Of a stretch of DNA of 64,000 bases, positions 19,681 to 60,590 are shown piece by piece. The notes beneath the pieces are model-generated. The model had not been told where the DNA came from and made no database searches. It saw only the letters and a program-made list of their open reading frames with translations. The stretch is taken from assembly GCA_964187785.1 (NCBI GenBank), contig OZ076410.1:20274001-20338000 (forward strand), given 5' to 3'. A program made the translations under genes and the position numbers. This DNA comes from Amphiscolops sp. MND2022 (taxonomy: Eukaryota). How positions within the stretch are numbered: the first letter of the stretch is position 1; every line of letters begins with the position of its first letter.

Positions 19681-20022
19681 TAAAGAAACTGTATATTCGA
19701 ATCGGCTAATAATACAGTCCGTTTGCAAAGAGTTTTTTGACCGCAGTATTAAAACATTCAAAGACATCAGTGAATAAATCAAAACAACTTGCAAAAGATC
19801 AATGTTGTTTACAAATATAATTAAACAAATTAAAGTTTCGAGATTGCAAATTATTTGAATGATATTTGAAAAATATATTTTACTATTTTCAGAAGTAGCA
19901 AATATTTGACGGTTTCGGGAATCGATCCGGTAACCTTCAAATTCCGAGTCCCATACTCTACCGACCGTGCTACGTTCACTTAATTTTGTTTGTTTTAATT
20001 CAACCATATTTGCTTTGCAACA
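19681..20022 (-). repeat. 5' LTR of intact BEL element
   Basis: Direct repeat of 10941-11282, followed by the PBS on the minus strand and flanked by TSD TTGTG. Confidence 0.97.
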
Positions 20023-26080: not shown

Positions 26081-26091
26081 CTATCATTTAA
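25699..26091 (+). CDS. LTR-encoded Gag N-terminal leader (130 aa; last 3 codons from flanking DNA)
   Basis: MTTRSQKRK...PVAGTSKSPR...NQKEMLKLI...TP.K...SRN is homologous to MSTTRSQKRK...VAGPSKPKSPR...SQKEMLKLL...TPTK...CRN of the Gag at 57464. Confidence 0.75.
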   Translation: MTTRSQKRKAVEELVSTEIETPVPEISLSENPVAGTSKSPRVISENLENIKSALRKEIMTDLTKILAENQKEMLKLIAPVTKKQTLVRASEETDSDPENIPENATSTPIKTKSTATTNKITPVNSRNTII

Positions 26092-42644: not shown

Positions 42645-43270
42645 CTTTATGAATCAGAACAATATTGAATTAGAAACTTGAAAGTATAGCAGTAATACAT
42701 CTTGTATGTTTTAGTACAGAATAGTCAATTATTGCAGCAATTATCAGTATTAGTCTTCAGATTTTTGAATAAATATCGTCTCCAGAGTTATTCGAAACTT
42801 CGAGTGATTTGATTATCAAATATGTTTTCTCTCGGGATCTTCCGAGCAAATACAAATTGAAAGTTGTTCGAAATCAATTTGGGATTTGCTTACATTCGTG
42901 TTAATTTCACGTGCATCAAATTGAAAGAAGGATGTTACTTGACTTCAGCTGCTGGCTTGTTTTGGTATTACAGTTTAAAAAACTCAATCACAAATGTTGA
43001 AAACTTGAAAAACCCCGATGAAATCCCAAAATCTTGAAATGAAGTTTTCAGGCCTTGGTCTTGGAATTAAATCGATTACTATTATCGTAAATTTGCTTTA
43101 AATAACAATTTAATGTCTTTTGATGTGAAATTGGCTAATGCAATGTAACGTCTACCAAAAAGGACGAAATTTCCAAAAATTCGAAAATAGATGGCACAAA
43201 AAATGGCCGACATAGCAGGTCCCCAAAATCAGTCTAGAAGACAAAAAAAGATAGCAGAACACCCCAACAC

Positions 43271-45703
43271 TGTTACGACATATTATCGAGTCGTTTTGAG
43301 TAGAACTTATCCTAACTGATTTTGTTGGAGTATAGAAACTCCTAGTTTCCTCTTCTACCTCTTCTTCAGTGTTTTCCCTAATGATCCCTCTTGTTTCAGG
43401 CTTAAGGAGTTTCAACATCTCCTTCTGGGATTCAATAAGAAGATTTTTGATCTCTGACGTTATTTCTTCCTTTAAGGAAGCTCTCAAACTTTCAAGAAGA
43501 CTATTCTCAATCCGGGGGGATTTTGGTTTAGAAGGCCCCGCTACCTCATCGTCCTGATTCGAAGAACAAAGATTTCCTACTACTATGGGTGAAATCAAGC
43601 CTTCACTTACATTCTCACTGGTGCTTTGCTGATCGTTCTTTCTTTTTTGGCTTCTTGTTGTTGACATTTTGTAGAAAAGTTTGATCTTGAAGAATTGAAT
43701 TTGTTTCAAAGATTTTTCTGACAAAGTAGAACAAGGCGAGAGTAGAATTGAAAATTCAACTGAATTGTACAATTACAAAAGACTGAGTCCCTTAATCATC
43801 AAATCCTATCATATTTATACCCTCCCAGCATCATTTGATCACGAACAAAGCCCTAATTTTCCTCGAACAATTAGTCATTTCCTGTATTTTCGATGAAAAA
43901 GTCATTTTGTTCCCAATTTTACGTCGACATTTCGTCAATTTTTGAGACACGATGATCTTCATTTAGCATTAGTCATCAGATTTGATCATATCATTTCATC
44001 TCGGCGTCCTTTTGCTTCCTCCCAAGCAGGAAGTAGATATTACTTCAGTCTGTCAAACCGGAAATGCTTCCCTGTTTTACTGCTTTGGTTCGCGGGAAAT
44101 TGACGCTGAGATGACGCTGACGTGAACAACAAATACCTGATTTTGAACTTCGCTTTGATAAAAATGCTATGACTAATTCCAAAATAGGAATATTTAAACG
44201 ATGCCAGGACAATATTTTATGAATTTGGACTCAATCCTTTGATAGAGATGTGAATGAAATCACGATATGAAAATAATACTTTGTTGGCAACTTTGCCATG
44301 TCGCGTCAAATGCGACAAGATTTATAAAATTAACAGCAACGTTTGTTAAATGACAACACCAACACAACATAAATAACTGGGTAGCAACGGATGAATTAAT
44401 ATTGCAACACTTCCGTTATTGCGATCTAAACGCTTAGATTGAAGTATAAAATGGAAGCACCGCAATATCTATATGCAAAAGGTAAAAATCAATGAAAGGA
44501 ACAACTATAACATTTCAAACATTTTATGAAAATACATTTCTACTACAAAATATATCGTGTATATGGCTGACATGAGAATAAACTGTGACCATTAAGAACA
44601 TATATGCGTAGAAAATTCCCTAACCCAATATTTATATACAAACCTCTTTTTAAATCCGGGCATATGACGACTAGCCAACGACAAGTTTGAAAACTCATTA
44701 CATGTAGGAATCATTATAATAGTTTACTCTTTTAATTCGGAAACACCGACAAAATACTTGTTTTAGCGTTCAAATTACTTTACACAATTTCCCTAAGCTA
44801 AATAACAGTTTAATTCGTCGGAAAAACTTAAATATCCCGTCAAATTCAGTTGTTCGTTTGTTTCAAAACTTGGCAGCGTCATATTGACGAGTTTTCTAGT
44901 CAGAAATCTGAACCTCAAAACTTGGCAGCGTCATGTTGACGAGTTTTCTAGTCAGAATATAAAATTTGCCAAGTCTGACGCATTGCTGACGAGTATTCTA
45001 GAAATGAATAGCTAGCTAGCTGCCATCGCTGTGACGTCACAACGGCGGTTAATTGGAATGATTTCCTAGAATGGTATTCTATATAGGCGGATAATTGGAA
45101 TGATTTCTAGTAAGCGTAGACGAGGCAGTGACGTCAACTGGTATACCTTTCAAAACTTGTCTGCGACCTGTTGACGACAAATATATATGTAGTGTTATTC
45201 TCACTGGTATAATTGTTTGTTTTACGCAGAGTTGCCGTCCTAAACCACTTTAATTGCTGTTCAAACGCAATTAACTAGCCTTATTTTGACAAGGCGTAAA
45301 TTCCTTATATGTATTTCAAAGTGTTCTTTTCATTTTAGATTTGGCTAATGTGCTCTCTGGAAACAATTTGTACTTGTATTTCTATTTAGATTGGCCTATG
45401 ATCTTTCTTCAAGACGCATCTTAATTTAATTTTCAGGTGGAAAAATGTCCAATCTGGCGTGATAGAAACGTCTTGCCGGAAATGCATGAAATCATTTTTA
45501 AATTGCTTCTCCGTTTCCATTTTCATTTTTAGACATGCGCTGACTAGTCGTGTCTTATTTGTCACAGATTATTTTTTATTTCGAGTTTTAAAGTTTAAGT
45601 TAATAATTGAAGTACCATTTGGGGAATCTTGCGTTGCATCCGTGCCCTCTTCCAATTCCCACACGCCTGCAACCACAAGCCAGACCGGGAGCGGGCTGTG
45701 ACA
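43271..45703 (-). repeat. 3' LTR (2433 bp)
   Basis: Direct repeat of 57068-59499. Contains a copy of the Gag leader ORF (43152-43772 in the track) and tandem ~52-bp repeats with TGACG motifs at ~44865-44960. Confidence 0.97.
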
Positions 45704-46328
45704 GGGCCGGTCTTCTGGGATTGAAGCCGCCTCCAGGCAGACGAGGCAAGAACGTCATTGAGTTGTTTTCTGTACTGGGACTGTTTGGAGTATTAACTTC
45801 ACGCGGCTCGTCAAGATCGTTCAGACTGCTTACTGGCAAGAAGTTTATCTTTTTTGGTGATCCAGGTGGTGTTTCGAAATAGGAATCTGCGTCTTCCTGA
45901 TTCACTTGCTCCAAATATTCCAGTACCCTGCTGCTTGTCACTGAGTCTGATTGTGATGCGGGCTCTTCCACTACAAACACGTCAGAGCACATGCTTTCGT
46001 CGGGACTTTCTGGGCTGTCTGGTAGTCCTTCATCTTGTCGTCCGCCCTGATTGGTGCTGGGGGCGCGAAACTGGGGGTCAATAGTGTCTAGGCTTAAGTT
46101 GAGCCTCAGCCTTTTGCAACTTGACTCTAGAGAGTCCGTCGAGATATCTAGGTATTCCTCTTCATCAATCGCTGCCTCTGTGGAAGAGTGAGACAACTCA
46201 AGCACAATTCTGTAGTTTGAAACGGGCTTCTTCGAGAGGGGTGTGGAAGACCTCTCTGATATTTCCCCTTCTTCTTCTTCACTAGAGGAGATGTCGATTA
46301 GCTCGAACACGTTTTTGAAGCTGTTCAT
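45600..46328 (-). CDS. 242-aa acidic, Ser/Glu/Pro-rich, probably disordered accessory protein; C-terminal ~34 codons run into the 3' LTR
   Basis: Uninterrupted ATG-initiated ORF, sense to gag-pol, inside the element. No recognisable domain. Confidence 0.55.
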   Translation of the reverse strand: MNSFKNVFELIDISSSEEEEGEISERSSTPLSKKPVSNYRIVLELSHSSTEAAIDEEEYLDISTDSLESSCKRLRLNLSLDTIDPQFRAPSTNQGGRQDEGLPDSPESPDESMCSDVFVVEEPASQSDSVTSSRVLEYLEQVNQEDADSYFETPPGSPKKINFLPVSSLNDLDEPREVNTPNSPSTENNSMTFLPRLPGGGFNPRRPALSQPAPGLACGCRRVGIGRGHGCNARFPKWYFNY

Positions 46329-46817
46329 TTTCTGCTGAGCACAGTTTATTTCGGAGTTCCACTTGTCGAGGCGATAGATTGTAGCACAATGAATTTAAGG
46401 TTGTTTTAGGATTAAAGCGAATGTCAGGAAAAATCCCTCTATTCTGATTGGTTATCCAATCGTTTTAATCCTTTTTTGTTGTCGTTATGACAACGCCAAA
46501 TTCTATTGGCTGCAAATTGAATTAGCTTGCTTAGCCAAATTTGTCAACGTTATGCTGACGTCATTTCGCTTGCTTAGCTAATTTTTGATTTTGTCACCGT
46601 TATGATGACGTCATTTTAGGATGTGGGATTAATTTTTTAACCCCGATAACCTTTTTGTCGACGTTATGCCGATGTCAATTTCGTCGATTCTTTAACCAAC
46701 TTTTGGTGCTGACGTTATGCCAGCGTCAATTTCGTTGGTGGTTTACCAACTTTATGTTTTGTCACCGTTATGATGACGTCAATTTTCGGTTGTTTTTCAG
46801 ATTCCAACTGTCTCTGA
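46329..46817. promoter_or_regulatory. Putative internal bidirectional promoter with 5-6 copies of a ~21-bp motif GTCA(C/A)CGTTATG(A/C)TGACGTCA and CCAAT boxes
   Basis: Lies between divergent ATGs (46328 minus, 46818 plus). Motif copies at ~46478, 46543, 46593, 46657, 46708 and 46761 contain CRE-like TGACGTCA; GATTGGTTATCCAATC at ~46446. Confidence 0.6.
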
Positions 46818-49800
46818 ATGGATCGTAATCCTCCTCCTTCTCGACGTGACACCGGCGCACAGAGTGGGAACGATACTCAATTCCTTTTTTCTGAAGGAGA
46901 CATTTACCATAGTGATGGTGATGTCATTCGTCGTCAAGCAACTGGTAAGTTTGTAATTCCCCGAACCATTAAGCTTTTGTGGATAATACTTATACCAGAT
47001 AGGCCTTTTCTGATTTTTTGTATTTCCATAGCTTAGATTTTCTGACGCGTCGATACGGGAATGTCTTGTTTGTTGCTAGATCCGCCTCCTTCTCCTCCTC
47101 TGGCTGGTGATTCTGTCGCAGAGTTCAGGGCTTCTCTTCCAGGGGATCTTTCTGGAATCTTGATTGAGCCTCTCGCAGAGTCGACACAGGGGGTCGGTGG
47201 GATAGAGACTGGGGTCACTGCTTCAGTTGTGCCAGTCCCTCCTTCATGTTGTTCCGGAGACTCAGATGTTCCTCTGGCAGTTCTTGCTAAAGATGCCAGT
47301 AGAGTCGACAAAGATGCCACTCACGAAGGTGAGGGGTTACCCCCCCCCCTCTTGAACAGAGAAGTACAGGGGTTCTGGAAGCAAATACTCCCCGATTTCG
47401 GAAAAGAGTTGCAAGGGATACTGGGTCTGAGGGGTCGAAAAGTAAACGTGGTGAGTTATTTTCGTTGCTGAGATTTTTATATTGTGTCGTAGGTCTGTTT
47501 ATGTAGCTCGGTTGTTTTTGTTATACTTCCATGTTCTTTTGTGTCTTTGTTGTGTATCGTGGCATGGTTGTCAGACTGTCGTTTGCTTGTTGTAGTGCAA
47601 TTGATGGATCCTGTCACGAGTGGTTCAGATCTGCCGTCGACATCAAAGCCACCGAGTGAGACTGTTTTCCGGTTCGGGGCACCAGTGGTTCGATTCAGTG
47701 TGTTTGATAGTGACAGTGAGCAGGCTGCTACTGGAGTGTTGCCAAGTACGTCGTCGCGACGGGTCGGACTGGCTGCTGCAGGACTTTCTGATGCAGAGGG
47801 GCATGCTTTGGACCCGTTTGTCACCCGTAAGTTTGTTGGTTTGGCAGTATTACTGCTACTTTTGTTTTCCGTTTGCCGTTGTTTACCGACTATGTGGTGC
47901 TTCCGTCTTATGTGAGGTGCGACTTGTATGCGCATTTGTTATCGTGATGTCTATTTGTTGTAGGTTTTGAGGAGCTGATCAGTCGAATGGAGACGACTCT
48001 GGAGAGTGCAGATCGGAGTCGTAAACGTGTGTACAGTCCGCGAAATCGGCTGCGTCGGGACATGGTCACTGGCAATCCAATTTACGAACTCTTCGTCAGT
48101 GGTTCCAGCACTGGTTCAGACAAGCTGTTCCACTGTATGATCTGCCAGCGAGACGTGTCCATGGAATCACGTGGGGCGGGCGAGTTTAGTCGTCATTTCT
48201 TCGGAAAGCGTCACTGGGTATTGGATGTAACGTACCGTGTCCAGAACGGTCTGCCAGTTTTCAATCGACTGATGGATCCAATGGTGCTCAGTGAGACGCA
48301 GCTGGAGGAGTATCGGAATCGCCCCAGCAAGGGAAAGAGCGAGGGGTATAGTTTTCCCGAGGATTTGCTTCCCGCGTGTATGCAAGCTGACTCCAGTGTG
48401 CCTTTGATGTCGATGGTAAACTGTCTCATCGAGCTGTTGCGTTTTGGTGGCAGTTACGTGCTGCTGCGGAAGTTGTGGGGGTGCTTCCGGGCTACCCTGG
48501 GTCCTAAGGACCCTCTTTATGATGTGCGTTGGAGTCGTCCCGAGTCTTTGGTGAGTATTCTAGAGTCTGATGTCTTGTCTTGCTATTTTCTGTTTGGGGA
48601 GGGGGGTAGTGGGTACATAGTAGTGTCTTTTGTGATATTTCCCATGTGTCGTAAAACATGAAGTGTTGTTGTATTTTAGTCGCTGATCTGTCAGGCGTTA
48701 TTTCCACGAGTGCTACGATCTCTGTTTGCCCGAATTGGCTCTTTCCGGGAGTACAGTGTGTCCTTTGCTGAGAGCGGAGGGTATCACAAATGTGTTGTTC
48801 AGACCTTTGACGAGCATACCCTGATGAGTATTTGTGTCAGGGTCGAGGCCGCTGGGCAACGTGTTCCCGAAGCTGAGCTAGCTGGACTGTCGCGTGTGAT
48901 TGACAGCACCACTGCATGCCAGATGCCTCTGTCGTGTCAGGGATGTAGTCCTACCCTGTTGCGCGTTCTGAGCGACAATCGTGTGGACGGTCGGGAATTT
49001 TTGATGTATCGAGAATTCTCTGTGGACGTCTTCCTGTACTGCTATCGGCTCGCTCACCAAGAAGTGTTCGGTGTCCTGGAGACGACCACGATGATAGACT
49101 TTCTAGTGTTGCGGTTGCGCGGTGCTATTCAAGAACCTTGGTGTGAGAGTGCTCCATGTCTCCGTCGCTGCATCGTTGCTGGTCACGTGGATTTCGCTGA
49201 TCTTCGTGGTGTGGTTGTTGACCTGATGGCAGTGTGGTCACATGTTCAGGACTTCGTGAAGCGTACTGGGCCCCGACACTTCAAAACCGTCGCTGGCCGG
49301 GTAATGATTTTGGTTGAGTTTTCTTCTCCCCGTTTTCTCTCTCTCTTTCTTTTTTTTTGTTTGGGGTAGAGTAAGTTCTCTTTCCTATGTAGTTGTGGTT
49401 TGCCTATATTGTTATTCTTTCGATCGGAGTTTTGATTGTGGGGCAACTGGTGTTATAGATGCGCGGCACTGACTGGCATATCTATTCAGAGGCGACTGTG
49501 CGACTGCACCTGGGTCTTCTGTTGCATGTCCTTGAACTCCGTTAGTATTCCGTTTGAATATTTCGTTTTTCGTGTAGTTGGATGGTGATATTTGAGTGAT
49601 AGCTATATTGGGTGGGTAGGAGGGGGGTAATTTGTAATAGTCGTGATTCATGGGTTGTGTTTTAGACTCCTGTTCTTTCAAGAAACAATCATCCGGTCGC
49701 AGCGATTACGGTTTCCATGGGTACATGGAAATTTGCCAGTTCGTGTATTGTCTTCTGTCGCGGAGTCGAAAATTTGGATCGCTGCCATGTCTGAACTCGT

Positions 49801-50888
49801 GGAAGAGCTATATGGATCTTGAAAAATTGGACGAGTTTGAGAGTGTTTCGCCCCGCGATTTCCTTTGCAATCATGATTTTGGTGCTGAGCTTCGCAGTCA
49901 CAAAGGGGGAGAGTTTCGTGTATTCGAGAGCCTTTGCCCGAAATTTATTGATCGCCTTGTTGTCGCTATTTTGAGTCAACAGCCTGTCACTGGAGAGTTT
50001 TCTCGTGGAGTCTACTGTTTCTGTCCTGAGCTGTTATTCGAAGGAGATGATCAGCACATGTTGATGTTGTTCCAGACGTTAATTCGTGTATTGGAGCGGA
50101 GTGGGGCTGTGTCTTCTCAGGAAGCGAAAACTGCCAAGGAAGAGTATGCGACGTTCGTTGTGGATGCTCGGTCTCGCCATATTGCTAGTGGTGCCAGTGC
50201 AGAGTCGATTGATGATGTGAGACACCATCTCCTATCCGATTACTCTTTCCAGTCCCGCAAGTCATTGTGTCGCGTCTTCAAGTTGTGTTGTTTGGCAGTA
50301 CTGAGGCCTCGTATGGATTTCCCTGTTGTGGAAATCGATCTCAGTGATTGTGTTGTTCCTGCTCTGGTGGTTGCAACGTGCATACAAGGCGTCCAAAGCT
50401 GCGTTATGTCATCTGAGTTTAGGTTGAAGTCCTTCTTTACTCAGTTTACGATGGGTGAAGTCCGAAAATCGATTGCTGGTGCCAGTTCTTTTATGTCGTC
50501 TGGAAGTTTTGATCCGTGGGATGGTTTATGCGGGATTAATCAGTCTGCCTTTGTTAATCGGTATCGTCGGCTTTTTGATGAACGAGTGGGTCGCAAGCGA
50601 AGTGTCAGTGGTGAACAACCGAGTGTCGAGAGTGATGGTGACTATGAGGGTTCCTCATTGTCGGAAAAATCTGCCGCATCTGTTATTTCAGCCCCTGCTG
50701 ATCCTACTTCTAGTGGGTCTAGTTCGTTCCGATTCAGCAAGACGAGAGTGTATGGGAGTGTTGCCTCGTTGTTGGGACGGAAGAAAAATGTTGATGTTAC
50801 TGAAAGCACTAAAGGCAAGAAGAAGTCGAAGAATGTGAGTAAGAAGAGCGTCAGTGAAAGTGGAGAGTCATCTTCAAAGAAGGAGTGA
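46818..50888 (+). CDS. Antisense 7-exon gene, ~1039 aa: zinc finger plus catalytically inactive hAT-transposase-derived protein
   Basis: Exon model 46818-46944, 47080-47328, 47596-47826, 47964-48550, 48680-49300, 49459-49540, 49666-50888. All introns are GT-AG, phases are consistent, total 3120 nt with no internal stop. CMIC...HFFGKRH zinc finger; YSVSFAES at the position of the hAT S(F/L)DES motif; LMAVWSHVQDF, EFSRGVYCFCPELL, AKEEYATFV and RKSLCRVFKLCCL resemble hAT insertion and C-terminal regions. The exon 2/3 junction has an alternative in-frame solution (47450 to 47493). Confidence 0.75.
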
Positions 50889-51108
50889 TCGCAGTCTGTG
50901 CCTTTTCAAACTTTTTGTAGTGTAGATTTAGTATCTTGAAACTGTTTGTTTCTTTTGTTGCCGTTCATTCCATATATAGTAAATGAAAAATGATCAGGAG
51001 AGAAAAGGAAAGAAAGAGTCAGTTGTTTGAAAAGTTAGGGCCGTAGTATGCCCGTTAATTGAAAATCGTCAGGCCGGTTCGGTCTGGACTCCTGATATTA
51101 TCTTTTCT

Positions 51109-54100
51109 TCAATAGTGAGTCGTAGTAAAAGCGTCGAGGCGTCTGAAGTCAGGATCAGCGTTAGGTTTAGGATTAGGTCGTAAGTTGTACTTCGCTGTTT
51201 TTCTTGGGTTATAGCCGACAACTGTAGGCGGTGATTTTGGGGGAATAGGCGGACTTTCAATGGGTGGGGGGCGCCGTATGTATGGGTTATCCCCTACGTC
51301 TGTAGTGAGATTTGAAAAGTCTGGAGACGTCGGCGTTTCGTCATGCGTGTCACCAGTTTGATTGTCTTGTATTTGTCGTGATGTTATTTCGTCATCTGTG
51401 TTCGTCATTTCTTGTGCGGCAGTCTGTTGGCTGTTTCCCGCATTTCGTGTCGGCTCAATTTCGTCGATTTGTTTTCCAAAATCCATTTCCCAGGATACTG
51501 CGTACCATTCGTTATGCGATACTTTGACGTCTGGATCAGGAAGATATTCATTTGTTCGTACTGTGACGTCAGGCAGTCGTTGTTCTGGCACGTAGGGACG
51601 TATTCTAATGCGATGTAGCGTCTGCGTGTATCTCGTGCCAAGTTTTCGGATCGTATAGTTATTATTTGAAAGTACTTTGATTACTACATACGGACCTGTC
51701 CAGATGCAATCTTGAAATGCAAACTTTGTTGACTGATTGTCGGCTTTCGGGTTGAGTATGTAGCAATAGTCGTTTATCTTGAGTGGGGCTGCGGACGCTT
51801 TTCGGTCGTAGTATTTTTTGTTTTTGAGATAGGACAACATAATATTGTCTTTTGTTGTCGCGCGCACTTCGTCAATTTGTTTTTGTAGTTGATCTGCTAG
51901 GTCGGATTTAGGTGTAGTTTTCCATTTCGGTCGAATGCCTAGCTTTAAGTCGAGCACGTTGTAAGGTATGCGTCCGTGGAATACTGTGGATGGCTCGCAG
52001 CCTAAAGTTTCGTGATACGATGTGTTGTAGTTCATGACTGCAATCTGGACGTATTTGTGCCACATTGAACGTCTTTCTCCCGTTGATATTTTTAGTGCTG
52101 TTTTGATTGAAGCGTGAGTTCGTTCCAATATTCCGATTGTTTGGGCATGTTTTGTGGAAGCGTGACTGATTTGAATTTCTAATATTTGCATTATTTCTGC
52201 CACTACTTCTGATCTAAATTGGGAACCTTTGTCCGATAGGATTAGAGTTGGCAAGTATGCATGTCTTGTCATGACGTCGACAATGCATCTTCCAATTGTC
52301 TTCGCTGTTACATTTTGCGTTGGGTATGCGAATAGGTAGCGTGAGAATACATCAATCATTGTGACAATGTTTTGATATCCCGCCGAGTTTGGTAGGTTGG
52401 GTAATACGTCAATTTCCAAGATGTCCTTCGGGCCCAAGACGTGTTCCGTGTTGTTGATCATTTTCGGTCTGATCTGGGCATTGTTGATTCGTTTGTATTT
52501 GATGCAGTCCTCGCATTGCATTACCCATTGTCTGATACGCTTCGCTAATCCTGGGTAGTAATATTTAGATCTACATTCCTGGATCATTTTGGTGATTCCT
52601 GGGTGTTTACCCATTTGTCCGTGTATTGCTTTTAGGAGTTCCGCAATTAGGTGTTCGGGGATTAATATTTGATGATGTGTGACTTGACCACATTCGCCGT
52701 AATATTTTCTCATTAGGATGCCGTCTTTGACTATTAGTCTGCTTTCATGGATTAATAGTCGTTTGGCAGTCGGGTCAGTTTGTAGAAGGTGTTTGTCGTA
52801 TTCCTCGCAAATTAGTTTCTTTTTGATTGTTTTGATAACTAAGTCTGAGTCTTGTTCGACTCTGATACGTGCATCTTCTTTGATTGCTCCGAAAGTATAT
52901 GATGCTCTATTTATTGGGATTGGGGTGGTCTCTTGGATGGTCAGTTTTATTTTTGTTGGCGCTTCGTCGTTCGCGCTTTGTCTAGCTTTTTCTTTTTGAA
53001 GGAGGATCTCTTCTTCTGTTTCGATTGTTTCGTCAGGTAGGAAGAATAGTTGTTCCTCATCTGCTACATCTGTGGATTGTAGGTTGACTTGTATTGGTCG
53101 GATTGTTATGTCATCTCTGATTTTTAGTTCAACTCTTTCCTTGGGGTTGAGGTCAATTCTCGATAGAAAGTCGGCTGCCGTGTTTTGTGTCCCTGCCACG
53201 TGCATGATGTGGAAATTGAATTGTAGCACATAATCACATGCGTTCCATAGTGTGGGGGGAATCGCTTTTGTTTGGAAGAACCTCGTTACTGATCTGTTGT
53301 CTGTCATCACTAGTGTTGGTAGGGTTGCTTCCCACAATATGTGACTGTATTCCAAAAAGGCGTGGTATATTGCCAGGAATTCTTTGCAGTATATTGACAT
53401 TTTCAGTTGTGCTGGCGAGAATACTTTTGATCCGAATGCAACGGGCGCGAAAGTTTTCTTTTTGGAGTTTAGTTTTTTTTTGTTTTCTTCTTCAATCATT
53501 AGTGCGTACCCTGATGCTCGGAAACTGGCATCTGTCATTAGGACATATTGTCGTCCCGTGATCGGTTGCTTGAGGGCTAGACCACAAGCTTCTGCTAGTG
53601 CTGCGTTGATTGCTTTGTAGTCGTCGGTTATTTTGATCTGTTTGTCTGTTTTTAAGAGTCCGTAGAACCCAATTAGTTTTTCAGACAAGCGCGGTATGTA
53701 GTTGCGGTAGTAGTTGACGAAGCCAATGTATCGTTGGACTTGTTTCTTTGACTTTGGGAATCTGACATTTGATAGGAATTGGTGAATTTTGTGATCCTGT
53801 GGGGCAATTCCTTGTGGGGTGATTGTTCTGCCTAAGAATTCTACTTGTGTTACTCCAAAATGACACTTGTCAATGGATAATTTAAGTCCCGCTCGTCTGA
53901 TGCACTCGAATACCGCTCTGATGTTTCGGATCAGTTGCGTCACAGTATTTGCAGCTTTGCCTATGTCGTCTACATATTGTGCACACTGATCAGCTTTGAT
54001 TACTTTATCCAGGTATTCTCTCATGAAGCTTGAGAATGCCGATAGTGCTCTGCTCAGTCCTTGTGCTAGGCGTTTGTAGGCGAAAGTTCTGCTTGCGAAG

Positions 54101-56034
54101 TTGAACGCTAGCATCTCGATTGATCTTCGGTCTGCCATTTGTAGGCAGTGGTACGCTTGGGAGCAGTCTAGTTTACAAAACAATTTCTTTCCGGCTAAGT
54201 GTTGGGCTGCATCTGACAGTGTGCTGACTGGGTGATTGTTGTTGATGTAGTCGTCCGATATTAGCGCGTTGATTTTTCGGAGGTCGACAAGTAGGCGTAG
54301 TTTGCCATTTGGTTTACGCTGTGCGAAGATCGGGCTGGCGTATTTTGAAAATGGCAAAGTTGTGATTATGCCGTATCTGTGCATTAGTGCCAGTTCGACT
54401 GTTAGGTCTTCTTTTAAGTTGATCGGTACTGGTAGGCTTTGTGTATATATGGGGCGTTCGTCCTTCGGGGTCAGTTTCACCTTGAACTTGTTGTTGATGC
54501 CAATGTCGAGTCTGTGGCGTGCGAAAATGTCGTTATACTCGACTATTGTTTGTTCGAGCTGTTTCCTGTCGTCCCCTTCAATCTGTGAGCCTTCCCATTT
54601 GAACATGTTAAGGAACTCGTTTCTTGACTCTTGGTCTTTGGTCGGGTCGAGTTGTTCTTTCCTCATGAGTTCGCGAATCTCATTGAGTATGCGTCTTTGG
54701 ATTGGTGTGTGTTCCTCTTCATTTCCTGGATTTTCGGGCGTCGGGAACCAGAGGTTGTCGTCGTTCTGCTCGTTATTTGTAGATTTCATGAGTTCATTGA
54801 CGTACATATGTGCATCATCTGGGTCTTGTAGTGTGTTCAGAGCTGCGACGTCTATGGGACGTATTTGTTTTGTGTCCTCTGGTTTAAGTATTTGTAGTTC
54901 TGCCAGTTTGGTGTGATTTGTGATTGTGTATGGGAACTCCGTTAGGTTGGCTATTCTGATGTTGATTCTTTTGTTGTGGGCGGTAGCTAACGCTGGTGCA
55001 ACGATGATGGTGGCTGTTTCGTCGAACTGTGGTAATGGTTGCACTGCTCCTGTAACGTCGGTTGTATTGGTGGTGATGACTATTGCGTTTACGGTTGTTG
55101 TTTGTTGTGGAGGCAGTGTCTGGTTCCCCTCAGTCATGATATGGAGTGGTTTGGGGTTACAATTTTTCTTTTCATCTGTCATGGCTAATGTCATTTCGAC
55201 ATGGGGGAAGGTGATGGTCCCATTGGCTGTATCTATCACTGCTTGGTGATTCCTCATGAAGTTCAGTCCTATTATTGGGAAGGACGTTTTTGAGAGTATC
55301 ACGAAGGTGTCTGTGAAGGTATACGTTCCTATGTTGAATTGTATATCGGCTGTGGCTATTGGTTGCTCCAGTTGAGCGTTTGCGCATTCGATTTTGAAAG
55401 GAGGTTGTGGATACTCTTTTATGACACAGTTGTCACTGTTCATTTTGATTGCATTGTAGTCCGACCAGGACATGGCATTGATGAACGCACCTGAGTCTAC
55501 AAGTCCATCCATTGTTATTTCGCCAAATTCTAGTGGCAAGTACAGCATTCGCCTCCTGCTCTTGAGGACTATAGTCGAGTGGAGAGGTAAGTACGTCTCT
55601 CCGTCCTTTTCAGTAACATACTCTTTAATAGAGTTGAGAGATGTGGGGAAATCTTCTGGGAAGATAGGTACTTGGGTGGAGCCGTGAGTATCTTCCTTTG
55701 TTAGTGGTGACGGTGGTTGGTCTTCATGTGCGTTTTCAGTTTGCTCTATTTGGGTTGCAGTGGATTGTGTTGTGTTAGTGAGGGATGGCTGTATGAGATT
55801 TGGGTGTTGTTTATGGTCGTCTCCATGGTCCTCATCTGGTGTTTGTTCCTTTTCGGTTTGTATGAGGGGTCTTCGTATGGAGGCGAGTGCCTGACGTCTC
55901 AGCCAGTCCTCTGTTGGGGTTCCATCGCATTCTATTGTTGTATCTTTTGTGTAAGCTGTTGGGGGGTCCTCTGGAGAATACGCCCTCGCATCTACTGTTT
56001 CCCCGAAGCGCAGACGCGGCGTAATTAGTTTTTT
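51109..56034 (-). CDS. Ty3/Gypsy Pol (protease, RT, RNase H, integrase), -1 frame relative to gag
   Basis: LVDSGA protease; YVDDI RT; VLMTDAS RNase H; HGQMGKH...CEDC zinc finger; IDVL / SDKGSQF / ILERTH integrase. By manual translation the frame is open from the slippery site (56034) through the track ORF 51109-55548. Confidence 0.96.
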   Translation of the reverse strand, partial: KKLITPRLRFGETVDARAYSPEDPPTAYTKDTTIECDGTPTEDWLRRQALASIRRPLIQTEKEQTPDEDHGDDHKQHPNLIQPSLTNTTQSTATQIEQTENAHEDQPPSPLTKEDTHGSTQVPIFPEDFPTSLNSIKEYVTEKDGETYLPLHSTIVLKSRRRMLYLPLEFGEITMDGLVDSGAFINAMSWSDYNAIKMNSDNCVIKEYPQPPFKIECANAQLEQPIATADIQFNIGTYTFTDTFVILSKTSFPIIGLNFMRNHQAVIDTANGTITFPHVEMTLAMTDEKKNCNPKPLHIMTEGNQTLPPQQTTTVNAIVITTNTTDVTGAVQPLPQFDETATIIVAPALATAHNKRINIRIANLTEFPYTITNHTKLAELQILKPEDTKQIRPIDVAALNTLQDPDDAHMYVNELMKSTNNEQNDDNLWFPTPENPGNEEEHTPIQRRILNEIRELMRKEQLDPTKDQESRNEFLNMFKWEGSQIEGDDRKQLEQTIVEYNDIFARHRLDIGINNKFKVKLTPKDERPIYTQSLPVPINLKEDLTVELALMHRYGIITTLPFSKYASPIFAQRKPNGKLRLLVDLRKINALISDDYINNNHPVSTLSDAAQHLAGKKLFCKLDCSQAYHCLQMADRRSIEMLAFNFASRTFAYKRLAQGLSRALSAFSSFMREYLDKVIKADQCAQYVDDIGKAANTVTQLIRNIRAVFECIRRAGLKLSIDKCHFGVTQVEFLGRTITPQGIAPQDHKIHQFLSNVRFPKSKKQVQRYIGFVNYYRNYIPRLSEKLIGFYGLLKTDKQIKITDDYKAINAALAEACGLALKQPITGRQYVLMTDASFRASGYALMIEEENKKKLNSKKKTFAPVAFGSKVFSPAQLKMSIYCKEFLAIYHAFLEYSHILWEATLPTLVMTDNRSVTRFFQTKAIPPTLWNACDYVLQFNFHIMHVAGTQNTAADFLSRIDLNPKERVELKIRDDITIRPIQVNLQSTDVADEEQLFFLPDETIETEEEILLQKEKARQSANDEAPTKIKLTIQETTPIPINRASYTFGAIKEDARIRVEQDSDLVIKTIKKKLICEEYDKHLLQTDPTAKRLLIHESRLIVKDGILMRKYYGECGQVTHHQILIPEHLIAELLKAIHGQMGKHPGITKMIQECRSKYYYPGLAKRIRQWVMQCEDCIKYKRINNAQIRPKMINNTEHVLGPKDILEIDVLPNLPNSAGYQNIVTMIDVFSRYLFAYPTQNVTAKTIGRCIVDVMTRHAYLPTLILSDKGSQFRSEVVAEIMQILEIQISHASTKHAQTIGILERTHASIKTALKISTGERRSMWHKYVQIAVMNYNTSYHETLGCEPSTVFHGRIPYNVLDLKLGIRPKWKTTPKSDLADQLQKQIDEVRATTKDNIMLSYLKNKKYYDRKASAAPLKINDYCYILNPKADNQSTKFAFQDCIWTGPYVVIKVLSNNNYTIRKLGTRYTQTLHRIRIRPYVPEQRLPDVTVRTNEYLPDPDVKVSHNEWYAVSWEMDFGKQIDEIEPTRNAGNSQQTAAQEMTNTDDEITSRQIQDNQTGDTHDETPTSPDFSNLTTDVGDNPYIRRPPPIESPPIPPKSPPTVVGYNPRKTAKYNLRPNPKPNADPDFRRLDAFTTTHY
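55981..56034 (-). promoter_or_regulatory. Programmed -1 ribosomal frameshift signal: A AAA AAC plus 3' stem-loop
   Basis: Heptamer AAAAAAC (56034-56028) directly before the gag TAA, followed after ~6 nt by a CGCC-GCGTCTGC / GTAGATGC-GAG-GGCG stem. The -1 frame is the pol frame. Confidence 0.85.
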
Positions 56035-57464
56035 GAGTCATTTTCAGATTGTGAAGTCGTCTGGGGGACGGAGGTATCTTTGGTTCGTTCCTGTAAGTTG
56101 TGGCGTTTGGGTCGTGGGTCATTGGCTGAATTGGCCCCGTTCCAGCAATCTTCCGTTTTGTGGGTCTTGCCACATGTATCATATTTGAGTGGGTTGGATG
56201 TTGTTCGGTTGGCTGGTCCGTTATTTCTCCGCGGTTGTTGCCATTTGTCTCTTTTTAGTTTTCGGCATTCAGCTTTGAAATGTCCGAATTTGTTGCAATA
56301 GAAGCAGTATCCTTTTCTAGTGTTCTGGGTAGTGGTTTCATTCGGTTTCGTCTCGGTTTTTGATGGAGTTGGTTCTATTTTGTTGAGGGGTACTAGCGTT
56401 ACCTCATCTGGGGCTCCAAGACCGTTTAGGCGCATTTCTCGTTCTAGGTGAAGTACAATGTCGTTGTAAGGCTTATCCTCGAGGTACGCTCGATTGAGGA
56501 TTTTCTTGACATGGTCCGGCATTTTGGCGTATATTGCTTTGTCTATGAACTGTTGGGCTTCAGCTCCAAATGCTTCTTTTGCTGTTTTCTGAAGTATATC
56601 CAGAAATTCGTGCAATTTCTGTGTTGATGGATCGAATCTTAGCGCATCCCATTCGCATCTGGCCTTTGCCATCGAGAGGTAGTCTCCAAATCGTCGTTTG
56701 AATATTGTCATGATTTCGTCGAGCGAGTCTTTTTTCGAGTCCTCGATGTTGCAGAAAGCTTGTAGTGCGTCTCCTCGAAGTAGGGAGTGGAAATAGTTGA
56801 TTTTCTGTATTTCCGTGAGGTGTGGATACATTTTGATGTTGTTACGAAAAAGGTCTTCAAATAATTCAAATTTTTCCGATTTCCCGTCGAACGTTGGGAG
56901 GGATGCCGTTAATGCTTTTGGCATAGGCAGCGTAGTGTTGTCGCCTTTTTCTGATGTGAACAAAGTTCTCGCTACAATTGGACGTTCTTTTGACGTCGGT
57001 TGACTTTGAGACCGGGCTTTCGTTCGTTTTGGCTGGTTAGTGGAGTCGGTTAGAACTCCTGTCACCATGTTACGACATATTATCGGGTCGTTTTGAGTAG
57101 AACTTATCCTAACTGATTTTGTTGGAGTATAGAAACTCCTAGTTTCCTCTTCTACCTCTTCTTCAGTGTTTTCCCTAATGATCCCTCTTGTTTCAGGCTT
57201 AAGGAGTTTCAACATCTCCTTCTGGGATTCAATAAGAAGATTTTTGATCTCTGACGTTATTTCTTCCTTTATGGAAGCTCTCAAACTTTCAAGAAGACTA
57301 TTCTCAATCCGGGGGGATTTTGGTTTAGAAGGCCCCGCTACCTCATCGTCCTGATTCGAAGAACAAAGATTTCCTACTACTATGGGTGAAATCAAGCCTT
57401 CACTTACATTCTCACTGGTGCTTTGCTGATCGTTCTTTCTTTTTTGGCTTCTTGTTGTTGACAT
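56025..57464 (-). CDS. Gag (~479 aa); first ~132 codons lie within the 5' LTR
   Basis: LPTFDGKSEKF capsid-type motif; CFYCNKFGHFKAEC CCHC knuckle; second knuckle YDTCGKTHKTEDC. The ATG at 57464 (MSTTRSQ) is chosen because it is conserved in the solo LTR ORF at 25699; the track ORF extends to 57569. Confidence 0.92.
   Translation of the reverse strand: MSTTRSQKRKNDQQSTSENVSEGLISPIVVGNLCSSNQDDEVAGPSKPKSPRIENSLLESLRASIKEEITSEIKNLLIESQKEMLKLLKPETRGIIRENTEEEVEEETRSFYTPTKSVRISSTQNDPIICRNMVTGVLTDSTNQPKRTKARSQSQPTSKERPIVARTLFTSEKGDNTTLPMPKALTASLPTFDGKSEKFELFEDLFRNNIKMYPHLTEIQKINYFHSLLRGDALQAFCNIEDSKKDSLDEIMTIFKRRFGDYLSMAKARCEWDALRFDPSTQKLHEFLDILQKTAKEAFGAEAQQFIDKAIYAKMPDHVKKILNRAYLEDKPYNDIVLHLEREMRLNGLGAPDEVTLVPLNKIEPTPSKTETKPNETTTQNTRKGYCFYCNKFGHFKAECRKLKRDKWQQPRRNNGPANRTTSNPLKYDTCGKTHKTEDCWNGANSANDPRPKRHNLQERTKDTSVPQTTSQSENDSKN
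57055..57067 (-). promoter_or_regulatory. Primer binding site TGGTGACAGGAGT (tRNA-Leu-like), inside the gag reading frame
   Basis: Directly abuts the LTR CA. One mismatch to the familiar tRNA-Leu PBS TGGTGTCAGGAGT. Codes for M-V-T-G-V. Confidence 0.75.
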
Positions 57465-59499
57465 TTTGGAGAAAAGTTTGATCTTGAAGAATTGAATTTC
57501 TTTCAAAGATTTTTCTGACAAAGTAGAACAAGGCGAGAGTAGAATTGAAAATTCAACTGAATTGTACAATTACAAAAGACTGAGTCCCTTAATCATCAAA
57601 TCCTATCATATTTATACCCTCCCAGCATCATTTGATCACGAACAAAGCCCTAATTTTCCTCGAACAATTAGTCATTTCCTGTATTTTCGATGAAAAAGTC
57701 ATTTTGTTCCCAATTTTACGTCGACATTTCGTCAATTTTTCAGACACGATGATCTTCATTTAGCATTAGTCATCAGATTTGATCATATCATTTCATCTCG
57801 GCGTCCTTTTGCTTCCTCCCAAGCAGGAAGTAGATATTACTTCAGTCTGTCAAACCGGAAATGCTTCCCTGTTTTACTGCTTTGGTTCGCGGGAAATTGA
57901 CGCTGAGATGACGCTGACGTGAACAACAAATACCTGATTTTGAACTTCGCTTTGATAAAAATGCTATGACTAATTCCAAAATAGGAATATTTAAACGATG
58001 CAGGACAATATTTTATGAATTTGGACTCAATCCTTTGATAGAGATGAGAATGAAATCACGATATGAAAATAATACTTTGTTGGCAACTTTGCCATGTCGC
58101 GTCAAATGCGACAAGATTTATAAAATTAACAGCAACGTTTGTTAAATGACAACACCAACACAACATAAATAACTGGGTAGCAACGGATGAATTAATATTG
58201 CAACACTTCCGTTATTGCGATCTAAACGCTTAGATTGAAGTATAAAATGGAAGCACCGCAATATCTATATGCAAAAGGTAAAAATCAATGAAAGGAACAA
58301 CTATAACATTTCAAACATTTTATGAAAATACATTTCTACTACAAAATATATCGTGTATATGGCTGACATGAGAATAAACTGTGACCATTAAGAACATATA
58401 TGCGTAGAAAATTCCCTAACCCAATATTTATATACAAACCTCTTTTTAAATCCGGGCATATGACGACTAGCCAACGACAAGTTTGAAAACTCATTACATG
58501 TAGGAATCATTATAATAGTTTACTCTTTTAATTCGGAAACACCGACAAAATACTTGTTTTAGCGTTCAAATTACTTTACACAATTTCCCTAAGCTAAATA
58601 ACAGTTTAATTCGTCGGAAAAACTTAAATATCCCGTCAAATTCAGTTGTTCGTTCGTTTCAAAACTTGGCAGCGTCATATTGACGAGTTTTCTAGTCAGA
58701 AATCTGAACCTCAAAACTTGGCAGCGTCATGTTGACGAGTTTTCTAGTCAGAATATAAAATTTGCCAAGTCTGACGCATTGCTGACGAGTATTCTAGAAA
58801 TGAATAGCTAGCTAGCTGCCATCGCTGTGACGTCACAACGGCGGTTAATTGGAATGATTTCCTAGAATGGTATTCTATATAGGCGGATAATTGGAATGAT
58901 TTCTAGTAAGCGTAGACGAGGCAGTGACGTCAACTGGTATACCTTTCAAAACTTGTCTGCGACCTGTTGACGACAAATATATATGTAGTGTTATTCTCAC
59001 TGGTATAATTGTTTGTTTTACGCAGAGTTGCCGTCCTAAACCACTTTAATTGCTGTTCAAACGCAATTAACTAGCCTTATTTTGACAAGGCGTAAATTCT
59101 TTATATGTATTTCAAAGTGTTCTTTTCATTTTAGATTTGGCTAATGTGCTCTCTGGAAACAATTTGTACTTGTATTTCTATTTAGATTGGCCTATGATCT
59201 TTCTTCAAGACGCATCTTAATTTAATTTTCAGGTGGAAAAATGTCCAATCTGGCGTGATAGAAACGTCTTGCCGGAAATGCATGAAATCATTTTTAAATT
59301 GCTTCTCCGTTTCCATTTTCATTTTTAGACTTGCGCTGACTAGTCGTGTCTTATTTGTCACAGATTATTTTTTATTTCGAGTTTTAAAGTTTAAGTTAAT
59401 AATTGAAGTACCATTTGGGGAATCTTGCGTTGCATCCGTGCCCTCTTCCAATTCCCACACGCCTGCAACCACAAGCCAGACCGGGAGCGGGCTGTGACA
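57068..59499 (-). repeat. 5' LTR (2432 bp)
   Basis: Direct repeat of 43271-45703, followed by the PBS and flanked by TSD AACAC. Confidence 0.97.
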
Positions 59500-60590
59500 A
59501 ACACATCCCAGAGAACCCCAGAAACGGCAGAATAACAACCCCGGAAAAGAGAGATAGAGTCTCAGTGTGTGTCGTCTATCCCAGCAGGAGACAAGACACC
59601 TTGGAAAACTCAAAATGGAGGTACCACCTTCTTGTGGATCACCCCAAAGACTCGAAAAACTCCATTACGACGCCAAACAGGGAACTTTTGACTGCAACAG
59701 ATCTGTTGCAGTGTGGTGTGGATTCTTCACATTGATTACATTACGTGGTTTTTCAAGAAATGAGGAAAGTGGAGTCCATGAAGAGACCCAGCAGATGCTT
59801 TTGCTAATTGATTTTGTCGTTAATTTAGCTGTTTCACAGTTTTTGATAGAGCTGGATCTAGTGGATCATTACCTTAGATACTTTTCCTCAATTATAATGT
59901 ATTTTAACTGAATCCTGTCATTGGACCTCGGAGTTTTGTAGGAAGTTGCAGGAACCCTAAGATCCGTTTTCACAGGCTTGTGGGACGTGTCCGGACTTTA
60001 AGAGTGCCGGCATGTTGCCTCGGAGCTCTAATTTGAGAGCCTCCGTATACGTATGAAAAGTCTCCCTAGTAGACCATTTTTGGGAGAAAAACTAGTGTCT
60101 AGGGTTATAGTAAGACAATGGTATCATGTTTAAGCACCCTAGGCATTATCTCACTTCTAGTATGTACGCACCTAGCTGGACGGCACACAACACTTTTCTG
60201 TTGCTAAATCTTGTTGTATCTAACATTTGTGAGAAGATGTAGACACGAACATATCGCCAATGCGATCGATAGATTTCTCGTCAAAAAAATTTGGAACAAA
60301 TCGAACTCCTTTTTATTTCCCTGATGGTTATCTAACTAACAGAAAATAGCTTTCGATGAACTGTTGTTGAAAAAGAATCGTTGCAACCAAATATGCTATA
60401 AGTTTTAAACGTATCGTATTTCTGATTCTATAATCGTTTCAAAAATTTCATTTCAAAACCAGAGAACTTCAAGCAAATCTATCGAGTGACCTAATATTTA
60501 TTGTACTTTTTTCATTGTGTCTTTCAATGCCAACGTTTACTCATCATTTTGTACTGCCCTTTGATAAATTAATATAAACTTTTCAGTTAC

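Follow-up and report, generated by a model that had tools for sequence, protein, structure and literature searches.

Architecture of the Gypsy element

The 64-kb stretch of DNA analysed here (the window) contains an autonomous Ty3/Gypsy LTR retrotransposon that is both young and intact. The element lies on the minus strand (43271..59499) and comprises 16,229 bp, 11.4 kb of which are internal. It is flanked by a perfect 5-bp target-site duplication (AACAC; left copy 43266..43270, right copy 59500..59504) and bounded by a 3' LTR of 2433 bp (43271..45703, minus strand) and a 5' LTR of 2432 bp (57068..59499, minus strand), the ends of which read TGT...ACA on the minus strand. Alignment of the LTR pair yielded 99.589% identity, with nine substitutions (three transitions and six transversions) and one 1-bp indel. 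An initial annotation of this DNA had reported the same element size, 2.43-kb LTRs of about 99.6% identity and a perfect duplication, all of which are borne out. Its description of the element as unusually large holds in part: 16.2 kb is large, but fits within the range of Ogre elements (16-25 kb) and is much smaller than planarian Burro (>30 kb), going by the sizes given in the giant-transposon review (PMC6431247).

The gag gene (56025..57464, minus strand) encodes 479 amino acids from its first ATG and includes a CCHC knuckle, while pol (51109..56037, minus strand) spans 1642 amino acids from stop to stop and encodes protease, reverse transcriptase (RT), RNase H and integrase (H2C2, core and C-terminal regions). 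Both reading frames are open (57464-56025 and 56037-51109), as originally annotated. In Pfam searches, the pol domains followed the Gypsy order PR-RT-RH-IN, with the protease scoring below cut-off, and no chromodomain was detected in the integrase; the best solved-structure match of the RT is Ty3 RT (E 5.9e-26). For gag, DUF1759 scored above cut-off and Retrotrans_gag and zf-CCHC below it; the start of gag presumably resembles acoel worm proteins. A slippery heptamer, A AAA AAC (56034-56028), is located directly upstream of the gag stop with pol in the -1 frame and, together with a predicted 9-bp stem, constitutes a -1 frameshift signal (55985..56034, minus strand). The gag ATG is found 397 nt inside the 5' LTR, and the primer-binding site is therefore located inside the gag ORF. 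The candidate site (57055..57067, minus strand) starts with TGG and abuts the 5' LTR; no tRNA gene was found within the window. In the 147 nt preceding the 3' LTR, the PPT region, the longest purine run is 6 nt. Pol and the 3' LTR are separated by 5405 bp of cargo (45704-51108), matching the 5.4 kb noted previously.

ORF3 and a dispersed repeat array

The sense component of the cargo, ORF3 (45600..46328, minus strand), encodes an acidic, Ser/Pro-rich protein of 242 amino acids for which no Pfam family scored above cut-off. ORF3 crosses the place of the PPT and continues into the 3' LTR, which includes the final 104 nt of ORF3 along with a second copy of gag codons 1-132. Three SUMO-interaction-like hydrophobic/acidic motifs are present in the protein. 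The generic SIM pattern is mildly enriched (three found; 359 of 10,000 shuffles reach three), and a stricter pattern was defined only after the sequence had been inspected.

Six dispersed repeats of about 27-31 nt, several of them with a TGACGTCA core, occupy 46473..46786 (starts at 46473, 46540, 46588, 46652, 46703 and 46756). ORF3 and a gene on the opposite strand, described below, start on either side of the array and run away from it; we consider the array a candidate bidirectional promoter as well as a candidate binding array. Tandem Repeats Finder missed these dispersed repeats.

A predicted spliced gene antisense to gag-pol

The plus strand of the cargo appears to carry the exons of one predicted spliced gene with five to seven exons rather than a single ORF. 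Five exons joined between 47604 and 50888, on the strand opposite gag-pol, encode 911 amino acids without a stop and are separated by four GT-AG introns of 125-158 nt. Exon 1 (47596..47826, plus strand; ATG at 47604) and the 82-nt exon 4 (49459..49540, plus strand) were placed by GT-AG borders and phase match. Exon 2 (47964..48550, plus strand) encodes a zinc finger and a helical region resembling DNA-binding and dimerisation domains, exon 3 (48680..49300, plus strand) an RNase H-like core (strands 1-5) and the start of a helical insertion, and exon 5 (49666..50888, plus strand) the helical insertion domain, a C-terminal hAT-like segment and a basic disordered tail with 15 K/R among its last 60 residues. 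The last of these exons corresponds to the second cargo ORF of the initial annotation.

The exon model agrees with natural proteins that need no splicing model. Single-ORF relatives of 709-890 amino acids are collinear with exons 2, 3 and 5, and a profile built from 22 of them matched exon 2 (E 3e-35, positions 27-213), exon 3 (E 2e-35, positions 215-411) and exon 5 (E 5e-49, positions 454-849), with no other match in the window below E 0.2. Exons 1 and 4 were not scored by this profile; the exon 4 peptide is present in 13 natural read-through ORFs, and exon 1 is without homology support. Aligned directly, residues 74-910 of the 911-aa model match the natural 890-aa ORF P0331 at 25% identity (E 2e-70). 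Base composition also separates exons (T 0.25-0.31, GC 0.47-0.55) from introns (T 0.41-0.50, GC 0.37-0.42). Homologs fall into 61 clusters for exon 3 and 83 for exon 5. Among 14 near copies, exon 2 is 99% identical compared with 82% in the intron read-through, and across the 61 exon-3 homologs the exon is 63% identical compared with 36% in the intron read-through. At the exon 5 acceptor the corresponding values are 48% and 53%, a comparison over seven residues only.

Joining exon 3 in phase 0 to an acceptor at 49683 was considered and dropped, as homologs are conserved from 49666 and the 82-nt exon 4 is present. Two mixed fragment alignments (A3 and A5), in which exon 3 was stacked on exon 5, were left out, and an alignment with a misplaced exon 2 (A4) served as a search query only.

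Up to two further exons may lie upstream. The first candidate (46801..46944, plus strand) has an ATG at 46818 and a donor GTAAGT at 46945 and was recognised solely by splice signals and exon-like composition; the second (47080..47450, plus strand) overlaps an ORF (47061-47468) that belongs to a cluster of four. Joined, they encode an ORF of 168 amino acids, the stop codon of which overlaps the 47604 ATG, with two frames offset around a C10 run (47341-47350).

Copies and relatives of the element

When clustered at 90% identity, the components of the element form groups of similar size: 23 members for gag, 37 for ORF3, 39 for exon 2 and 37 for exon 5. Within the ORF3 cluster, the 14 members listed are 92.6-98.3% identical. 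For five of the six full-length non-self gag members listed, a contig of equal size carries one of the listed antisense-unit members, which serves as a proxy for co-location and not as evidence of adjacency. The reading of this locus as a young Gypsy element with non-env accessory genes is thus upheld, gag, ORF3 and the antisense exons recurring among near-identical copies. An assembly artefact or one-off chimera is scarcely credible: the locus itself is known from the assembly alone, but a perfect target-site duplication surrounds a single element, and its components recur together elsewhere by the contig-size proxy.

More distant relatives are numerous. Sixteen of 22 single-ORF clusters contain 18-104 members, and the family tree shows deep divergence; the Gypsy context of the divergent and single-ORF relatives is extrapolated rather than read from their flanks. 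Locus scans of JGI metagenomes, IMG/VR and GTDB yielded no relatives.

The antisense product resembles hAT transposases

Structural analysis was based on P0447, a single-ORF relative about 25% identical to the antisense product, to which the window exons are tied by profile. The AlphaFold model of P0447 (mean pLDDT 76.6) retrieved Hermes in all of the top ten Foldseek rows (best E 5.4e-5), and comparison with Hermes by VIA gave a Z score of 13.1 over 396 aligned residues (rmsd 4.9), the next best Z being 6.6. Atlas features of P0447 scored 0.93 against clusters of the Dimer_Tnp_hAT, DUF4371 and ZBED5 type and 0.92 against the zf-C17orf113 cluster; the match comprised 164 shared features, where same-family matches typically have 170. 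Folded alone, exon 5 (pLDDT 63.9) gave no Foldseek match at E 0.001, a best Z of 5.0 and a best Atlas score of 0.81, and neither Pfam nor PDB sequence profiles identified a hAT family in the cargo.

Similar to Hermes (8edg, 8sjd, 4d1q, 6dwz and 2bw3), the protein is organised into an N-terminal zinc finger, a helical domain, an RNase H-like core that a large helical insertion interrupts and a C-terminal segment, a layout also found in host-domesticated hAT proteins of the ZBED5, FAM200, ZMYM1 and C17orf113 type. The zinc finger, C-x2-C-x16-H-x5-H, is encoded at 48134-48214 in exon 2; its ligands are retained in 22, 21, 21 and 22 of 22 rows, and it did not match Pfam zf-BED. Unlike Hermes, with which it shares 9-12% identity, the gene is not bracketed by recognisable TIRs: of 49 inverted 11-nt pairs around it, none is accompanied by an 8-bp duplication. 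It also differs from both Hermes and the domesticated proteins in being carried by a retrotransposon, where Hermes belongs to a DNA transposon and the domesticated proteins to host chromosome loci. The cargo very probably represents a hAT-derived spliced accessory gene, and it appears that the lineage took in a hAT transposase gene long ago.

The DNA-transposase ancestry of the antisense gene had escaped the initial annotation, which described the element as virus-like. Its observation that the cargo has no signal peptide or transmembrane helix stands: ORF3 has no TM-like stretch (best 19-residue Kyte-Doolittle mean 0.45), and the hydropathy peak of the antisense product (1.79) falls among helices in the core of the fold model, its N-terminal start being hydrophilic. 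The proposal that the cargo replaces env and renders the element infectious draws on its position between pol and the 3' LTR and on the presence of a sense ORF3, yet is very improbable, because ORF3 is devoid of a hydrophobic stretch and the large cargo gene is antisense with the fold of a nuclear DNA transposase. No env-like feature was found in the cargo, and the virus-like label is not supported.

Apparent loss of the catalytic aspartates

The DDE triad of Hermes consists of D180, D248 and E572, as given in PMC2533014. In the window, the residues at the equivalent sites, which were placed from the order of the strands and the hAT motif and not by residue-level superposition, are Ala and Gln, both in exon 3, and Glu in exon 5. 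None of 24 rows has an Asp within strand 1 (237-243) or at 296-299 at the end of strand 4, and in the spliced group the mapped first and second sites have Asp in 0 of 39 and 0 of 46 rows. The third site is acidic in all 24 rows of the single-ORF group and in 36 of 51 rows of the spliced group. One position past the mapped first site, D or E is found in 34 of 39 spliced rows, and D follows the second site by one position in 4 of 24 single-ORF rows. Judged from these alignments, the antisense protein is most likely catalytically dead; residual chemistry or metal binding is possible in view of the acidic residues next to the mapped sites and the acidic third site.

These results also bear on the idea that a hAT DNA transposon, nested in the element or hitch-hiking with it, makes up the cargo, whether as a relic or as an active enzyme with an unusual active site, and that the many relatives are DNA transposon copies. 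This would account for the hAT fold, the high-copy clusters, the retained third acidic site and the distant relatives without observed Gypsy context. It is nevertheless quite improbable: a TIR pair with 8-bp duplication is lacking, the frame is open over five exons, strands 1 and 4 are without a conserved Asp in both subfamilies, the clusters are as large as those of gag and ORF3, and among copies exon 2 (99% identical) is more conserved than gag (about 96%).

Proposed function of the antisense protein

Taken together, we favour the reading that this Gypsy lineage keeps a disarmed hAT transposase as a permanent antisense, probably DNA-binding, accessory factor, at a probability of roughly 0.6. 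An internal promoter at 46400-46800 would drive the antisense gene in the direction opposite to gag-pol, and the transcript would then be spliced. Its introns would survive retrotransposition because the genomic RNA is complementary to the strand that bears their splice sites. The protein, presumably unable to cut DNA, would bind it via the zinc finger and helical domain and, given its basic tail, may act in the nucleus. Its most likely job would be to activate its own element family, or to counter its silencing, in a sequence-specific manner by acting on the six upstream repeats or on the LTR; TnpA and VANC play such a part for DNA transposons. ORF3, which has SUMO-interaction-like motifs, may assist it as a partner effector. 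We regard a regulator role as slightly favoured by the odds.

The same hAT-derived gene might instead act at integration, binding cDNA ends or host chromatin and carrying or tethering the pre-integration complex, for nuclear import or target choice. The binding of transposon ends is well established for hAT transposases, and a basic tail alongside an integrase without chromodomain would suit such a task. A role in the pre-integration complex has also been proposed for plant antisense ORFs (PMC7264820). This option is a minor possibility, as a separate antisense message has no visible route into the particle and the repeat array is located at the internal promoter region, away from the LTR ends.

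Alternatively, the protein could be a decoy or dominant negative that poisons competing DNA transposases or soaks up host silencing factors, or antisense RNA could tune gag-pol. The full-length fold is retained despite the missing catalytic Asp residues, and PMC7264820 discusses regulation by antisense RNA. Both versions are unlikely: with only about 10% identity to Hermes and with deep divergence inside the family, the protein would hardly form mixed oligomers with active hATs, and the protein-level constraint at the exons speaks against an RNA-only role. Returning to the favoured accessory-factor reading, its broadest form is tentative, at somewhat less than even odds: an animal Gypsy radiation of dozens of families, in three subgroups by intron content, would have domesticated a dead hAT, much as hosts tame DNA transposons, as a sequence-specific anti-silencing or transactivating protein that binds a repeat array in the internal promoter of each family, with a poly-SIM ORF3 partner. 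No antisense accessory gene of an LTR element would, on this reading, have had its origin traced before.

Comparison with known systems and significance

Antisense accessory genes have been described in plant and fungal Gypsy elements, and reviews treat their origin as well as their function as open (PMC7264820, PMC11963269). Retand (Tat-lineage) elements of plants encode antisense TRP28 ORFs, with further examples in Grande (gene23) and RIRE2 (PMC11963269, PMC7264820). According to these descriptions, they share with the present element a long region between pol and the 3' LTR (2.9-6.6 kb in Retand-type elements, 5.4 kb here), an antisense accessory ORF common to families or copies, nearby repeats and a proposed DNA-binding regulatory role. 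In contrast, no TRP28 (Transposase_28) domain was detected here in Pfam searches, the host is an animal, as BEL/Pao neighbours also indicate, and the gene has multiple exons. Moreover, a hAT origin is traceable here, whereas both papers, where they address origin, report no TE similarity supporting a nested-TE source (PMC7264820, PMC11963269). The brtn gene of Boty/BcGypsy1 in Botrytis, as outlined in PMC8365987, is likewise an antisense accessory gene between pol and the 3' LTR of a Gypsy element, but here the product is a transposase-fold protein of about 900 amino acids accompanied by a sense ORF3.

Spm TnpA and VANDAL VANC are, in the accounts available, TE-encoded accessory proteins with repeats in non-coding parts of the element as targets, which here are predicted. 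TnpA, described as deriving from a transposase, offers a transposase-to-regulator precedent (10.64898/2026.08.24.746577), and the targets of VANC are given as repeats (PMC5735166). Unlike these proteins, which serve plant DNA transposons of their own class, the putative regulator here would have passed from a class II into a class I element. Bdelloid LTR elements (PMC5408684) and Burro (PMC6431247) are also animal Gypsy-like elements with captured non-env genes, but their cargo is listed as GDSL esterase, DEDDy exonuclease, TM or coiled-coil ORFs or polyprotein domains; the available text of the bdelloid paper does not contain the word transposase, and that of the giant-transposon review does not contain hAT. 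The acoel genome paper (PMC9911081) attributes half of the genome to LTR elements, with no mention of gypsy or such cargo in the text available from it. Among the literature titles and abstracts searched, no hAT-derived gene in an LTR retrotransposon was found.

Of note here is an antisense accessory gene of traceable origin, namely a hAT fold without catalytic aspartates, and with it the proposed domestication of a transposase by another transposon class and not by the host. The proposal makes the testable prediction that the zinc-finger protein recognises repeats within its own element, and it suggests a fold-based re-examination of TRP28, gene23 and brtn. The relatives form a natural series in which the gain and loss of introns within a retroelement can be followed, and the accessory gene may help explain the flourishing of LTR elements in this animal genome.

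Anatomy of the Gypsy element

The element at 43271..59499 (16,229 bp, minus strand) is a real, young Gypsy retrotransposon. Its LTRs (43271-45703 and 57068-59499) form one long near-perfect direct repeat in a self-comparison of the window, run from TGT to ACA on the minus strand and are flanked on either side by the target-site duplication AACAC. Exact alignment, as called for by the initial annotation, gave 99.589% identity with 9 substitutions, of which 6 are transversions, and one single-base indel. Gag (479 aa, minus strand, from the ATG at 57464) and pol (1642 aa, minus strand, 56037-51112) are both open. The measurements on which a recently active element had been proposed are all borne out. 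An artefact is considered next to negligible.

Pfam places protease (below cut-off), reverse transcriptase (RT), RNase H and integrase on pol in the Gypsy order, and Ty3 is the closest solved match to the RT. Pol reads in the -1 frame; the heptamer A AAA AAC immediately precedes the end of gag and is followed by a candidate 9-bp stem. The gag ATG is located 397 nt into the 5' LTR (57068-57464), thus placing the primer-binding site within the gag ORF and 132 gag codons on every 3' or solo LTR. A candidate primer-binding site beginning TGG adjoins the 5' LTR. No clear polypurine tract was found before the 3' LTR (45704-45850, longest purine run 6 nt), and ORF3 coding continues through this expected place into the LTR. 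As to the further claim of an RNA genome well above the usual Gypsy size, 16 kb is not extreme compared with the planarian elements described in PMC6431247.

The neighborhood contains further mobile elements. At 25702-26085 lies what is left of the gag start carried in the LTR of a related family (33% identical to gag residues 3-134). On the minus strand, 11446-17874 is occupied by a BEL/Pao element whose 2143-aa polyprotein (Peptidase_A17, DUF5641, DUF1759) is open, and a 343-bp direct repeat (10941-11283 and 19681-20023) lies on either side of this ORF. The repeats, which are probably its LTRs, are 99.4% identical, suggesting that this element is young too. A second, broken BEL/Pao-like element at 243-6071 (plus strand) is ~70% identical to it in DNA. 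The presence of BEL/Pao elements nearby is indicative of an animal as host. A ZZ zinc finger and protein kinase gene in two frames (60586-61811, minus strand) lies ~1.1 kb from the 5' LTR of the Gypsy element.

Two divergent cargo units

The 5405-bp interval between pol and the 3' LTR (45704-51108) contains two divergent units. Of the two cargo ORFs initially annotated, the sense one, ORF3, stands; antisense-strand ORFs at 47493, 47948, 48680 and 49647 are probably exons of a spliced gene. ORF3 (46328-45600, minus strand) encodes 242 acidic, Ser/Pro-rich residues, its last 104 nt lying within the LTR. It has no hydrophobic stretch, in agreement with the earlier reading that a transmembrane helix is missing, and a role as env substitute appears extremely improbable. 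Three hydrophobic and acidic motifs in ORF3 are presumably of the SUMO-interaction type; they are a weak lead because 359 of 10000 shuffles also reach three matches to the generic pattern. Six dispersed repeats of 27-31 nt lie between the starts of ORF3 and the antisense gene; a motif with TGACGTCA, resembling these repeats, is found at 24577.

The predicted antisense exons (plus strand, 47604-47826, 47964-48550, 48680-49300, 49459-49540 and 49666-50888) are joined across four GT-AG introns of 125-158 nt, with matching phases and no stop across 911 codons. T content is 0.25-0.31 in exon blocks versus 0.41-0.50 in intron blocks. Among 14 listed near copies, identity to the window is 99% in exon 2 (2583/2618 residues) and 82% in intron read-through (384/470); across 61 exon-3 homologs the corresponding values are 63% and 36%. 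A post-hoc pattern located the exon 3 donor in 43 of the 61, with Val (GTN) there in 42. At the acceptor of exon 5, a comparison over 7 residues did not discriminate between exon and intron side. The exon 4 peptide was found in 13 natural read-through ORFs, in some of them as the first 11-14 residues only. Upstream, two additional exon-like blocks (46801-47604) would together encode 168 aa, and the stop codon of this ORF shares bases with the ATG of the hAT-derived one (TGATG). A second open frame extends from a C10 run (47341-47350) as far as the donor site at 47451. The 168-aa ORF could be read by stop-restart translation, belong to a gene of its own or reflect an offset between frames.

A large protein family with probable hAT transposase ancestry

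The antisense protein family is large and old. Searches with exon 5 and exon 3 recovered 83 clusters among 5614 candidates (38-98% identity) and 61 among 300, respectively, and an exon 5 profile matched 782 representatives at E 0.001. These include P0331, a single 890-aa ORF aligning to residues 74-910 of the spliced model (25%, E 2e-70), which itself recovered 63 clusters among 8000 candidates scored. All matches listed for the exon 5, exon 3 and P0331 searches are unnamed ENA proteins. Single ORFs of 709-890 aa make up 22 of the 63 clusters, 16 of them with 18-104 members. A profile of these 22 matches window exons 2, 3 and 5 collinearly and nearly full length (positions 27-213, E 3e-35; 215-411, 2e-35; 454-849, 5e-49); exons 1 and 4 did not score with it. 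A tree of 47 chosen rows separates three groups: window-like spliced sequences (22 rows, support 99/95), single ORFs spanning exons 2-5 (19 rows, support 100/100), and ORFs ending inside the exon 5 equivalent. This pattern suggests intron gain or loss within the family.

Pfam and PDB sequence profiles of the cargo gave no match, nor did exon 5 modelled alone give a fold match. The model of a single-ORF relative, P0447 (24-row alignment, pLDDT 76.6), consists of three strands, a helix, a strand, a helix and a long helical insertion. The hAT transposase Hermes fills all top ten Foldseek rows (best E 5.4e-5; next family 0.097) and is alone among 48161 chains in reaching a VIA-align Z of at least 8 (Z 13.1, 396 residues, rmsd 4.9; next 6.6). 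Atlas features score 0.93 to the Dimer_Tnp_hAT, DUF4371 and FAM200-ZBED5 RNase-like clusters, with 164 features in common. Judged by the modelled fold of this relative, the antisense cargo is an accessory gene of new, traceable origin, most likely descended from a hAT transposase.

On the basis of strand order and a hAT motif, the putative catalytic sites 1 and 2 were placed where strands 1 and 4 end. Asp is absent from both in all 24 single-ORF rows and in the spliced group (0/39 and 0/46), the window carrying Ala and Gln, while the inferred third site is D/E in 24/24 and 36/51 rows. Hermes requires D180, D248 and E572, according to the available portion of PMC2533014. Counting against a clean loss, an acidic residue lies one position past site 1 in 34 of 39 spliced-group rows, and Asp one position past site 2 in 4 of 24 rows. 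The four zinc ligands of exon 2 are kept in 22/22, 21/22, 21/22 and 22/22 rows. The product retains DNA-binding parts and a basic tail and has probably lost DNA cutting. A nested or atypically active hAT is very unlikely; of 49 inverted pairs bracketing the gene, none carried an 8-bp duplication. A role as an integration cofactor is an unlikely alternative.

Association with the element and proposed function

Clusters at 90% contain 23 (gag), 37 (ORF3), 39 (exon 2) and 37 (exon 5) members, of which 15 each were listed. Largest-contig size, a proxy for co-occurrence that says nothing on adjacency, matches listed antisense-unit members for 5 of 6 listed full-length non-self gag proteins (21513, 431724, 348217, 840691 and 104447) and for 7 of 14 listed non-self ORF3 proteins. 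By this proxy the antisense gene would travel with the Gypsy element among near copies. For divergent and single-ORF clusters, locus scans (JGI metagenomes, IMG/VR, GTDB) were all blank and gave no Gypsy context. Listed copies are 95.6-96.7% (gag) and 92.6-98.3% (ORF3) identical to the window, indicating that the family was active over time. In near copies the antisense product is more constrained than gag and is therefore probably needed by the element; a decoy or RNA effect seems quite unlikely.

The architecture is of a known kind; the origin of the accessory gene is new. In plants, Retand, Grande and RIRE2 likewise carry antisense accessory genes in the interval that separates pol from the 3' LTR (PMC11963269 and PMC7264820), as does Boty in fungi (PMC8365987). 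The same two plant sources call the origin of such genes unknown and a nested-TE origin unsupported, whereas the gene in the window is traceable to a hAT transposase. Among animals, non-env cargo is similarly carried by LTR elements of bdelloids (PMC5408684) and planarians (PMC6431247), as far as the accessible sections describe. No hAT-derived gene in an LTR retrotransposon was found in the open-access literature searched by title and abstract, and hAT is not mentioned in the accessible parts of two recent surveys.

We propose a model, held overall at a probability of about 0.6, in which the hAT-derived antisense accessory gene is a regulator of its own Gypsy family; the regulatory role taken by itself is slightly more likely than not. 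The element, as its anatomy shows, replicates like any ordinary Gypsy. An internal promoter region near the six repeats may drive ORF3 in one direction and the hAT-derived gene in the opposite one. Splice sites opposite the genomic RNA strand would go unread in replication, so that the antisense introns persist. The accessible part of a 2026 preprint (10.64898/2026.08.24.746577) has Spm TnpA derived from a transposase and leaves LTR elements unmentioned, and VANC proteins target element repeats (PMC5735166, in the portion available). By analogy with Spm TnpA and VANC, we lean towards the view that the antisense product activates cognate copies in a sequence-specific manner or counteracts their silencing.
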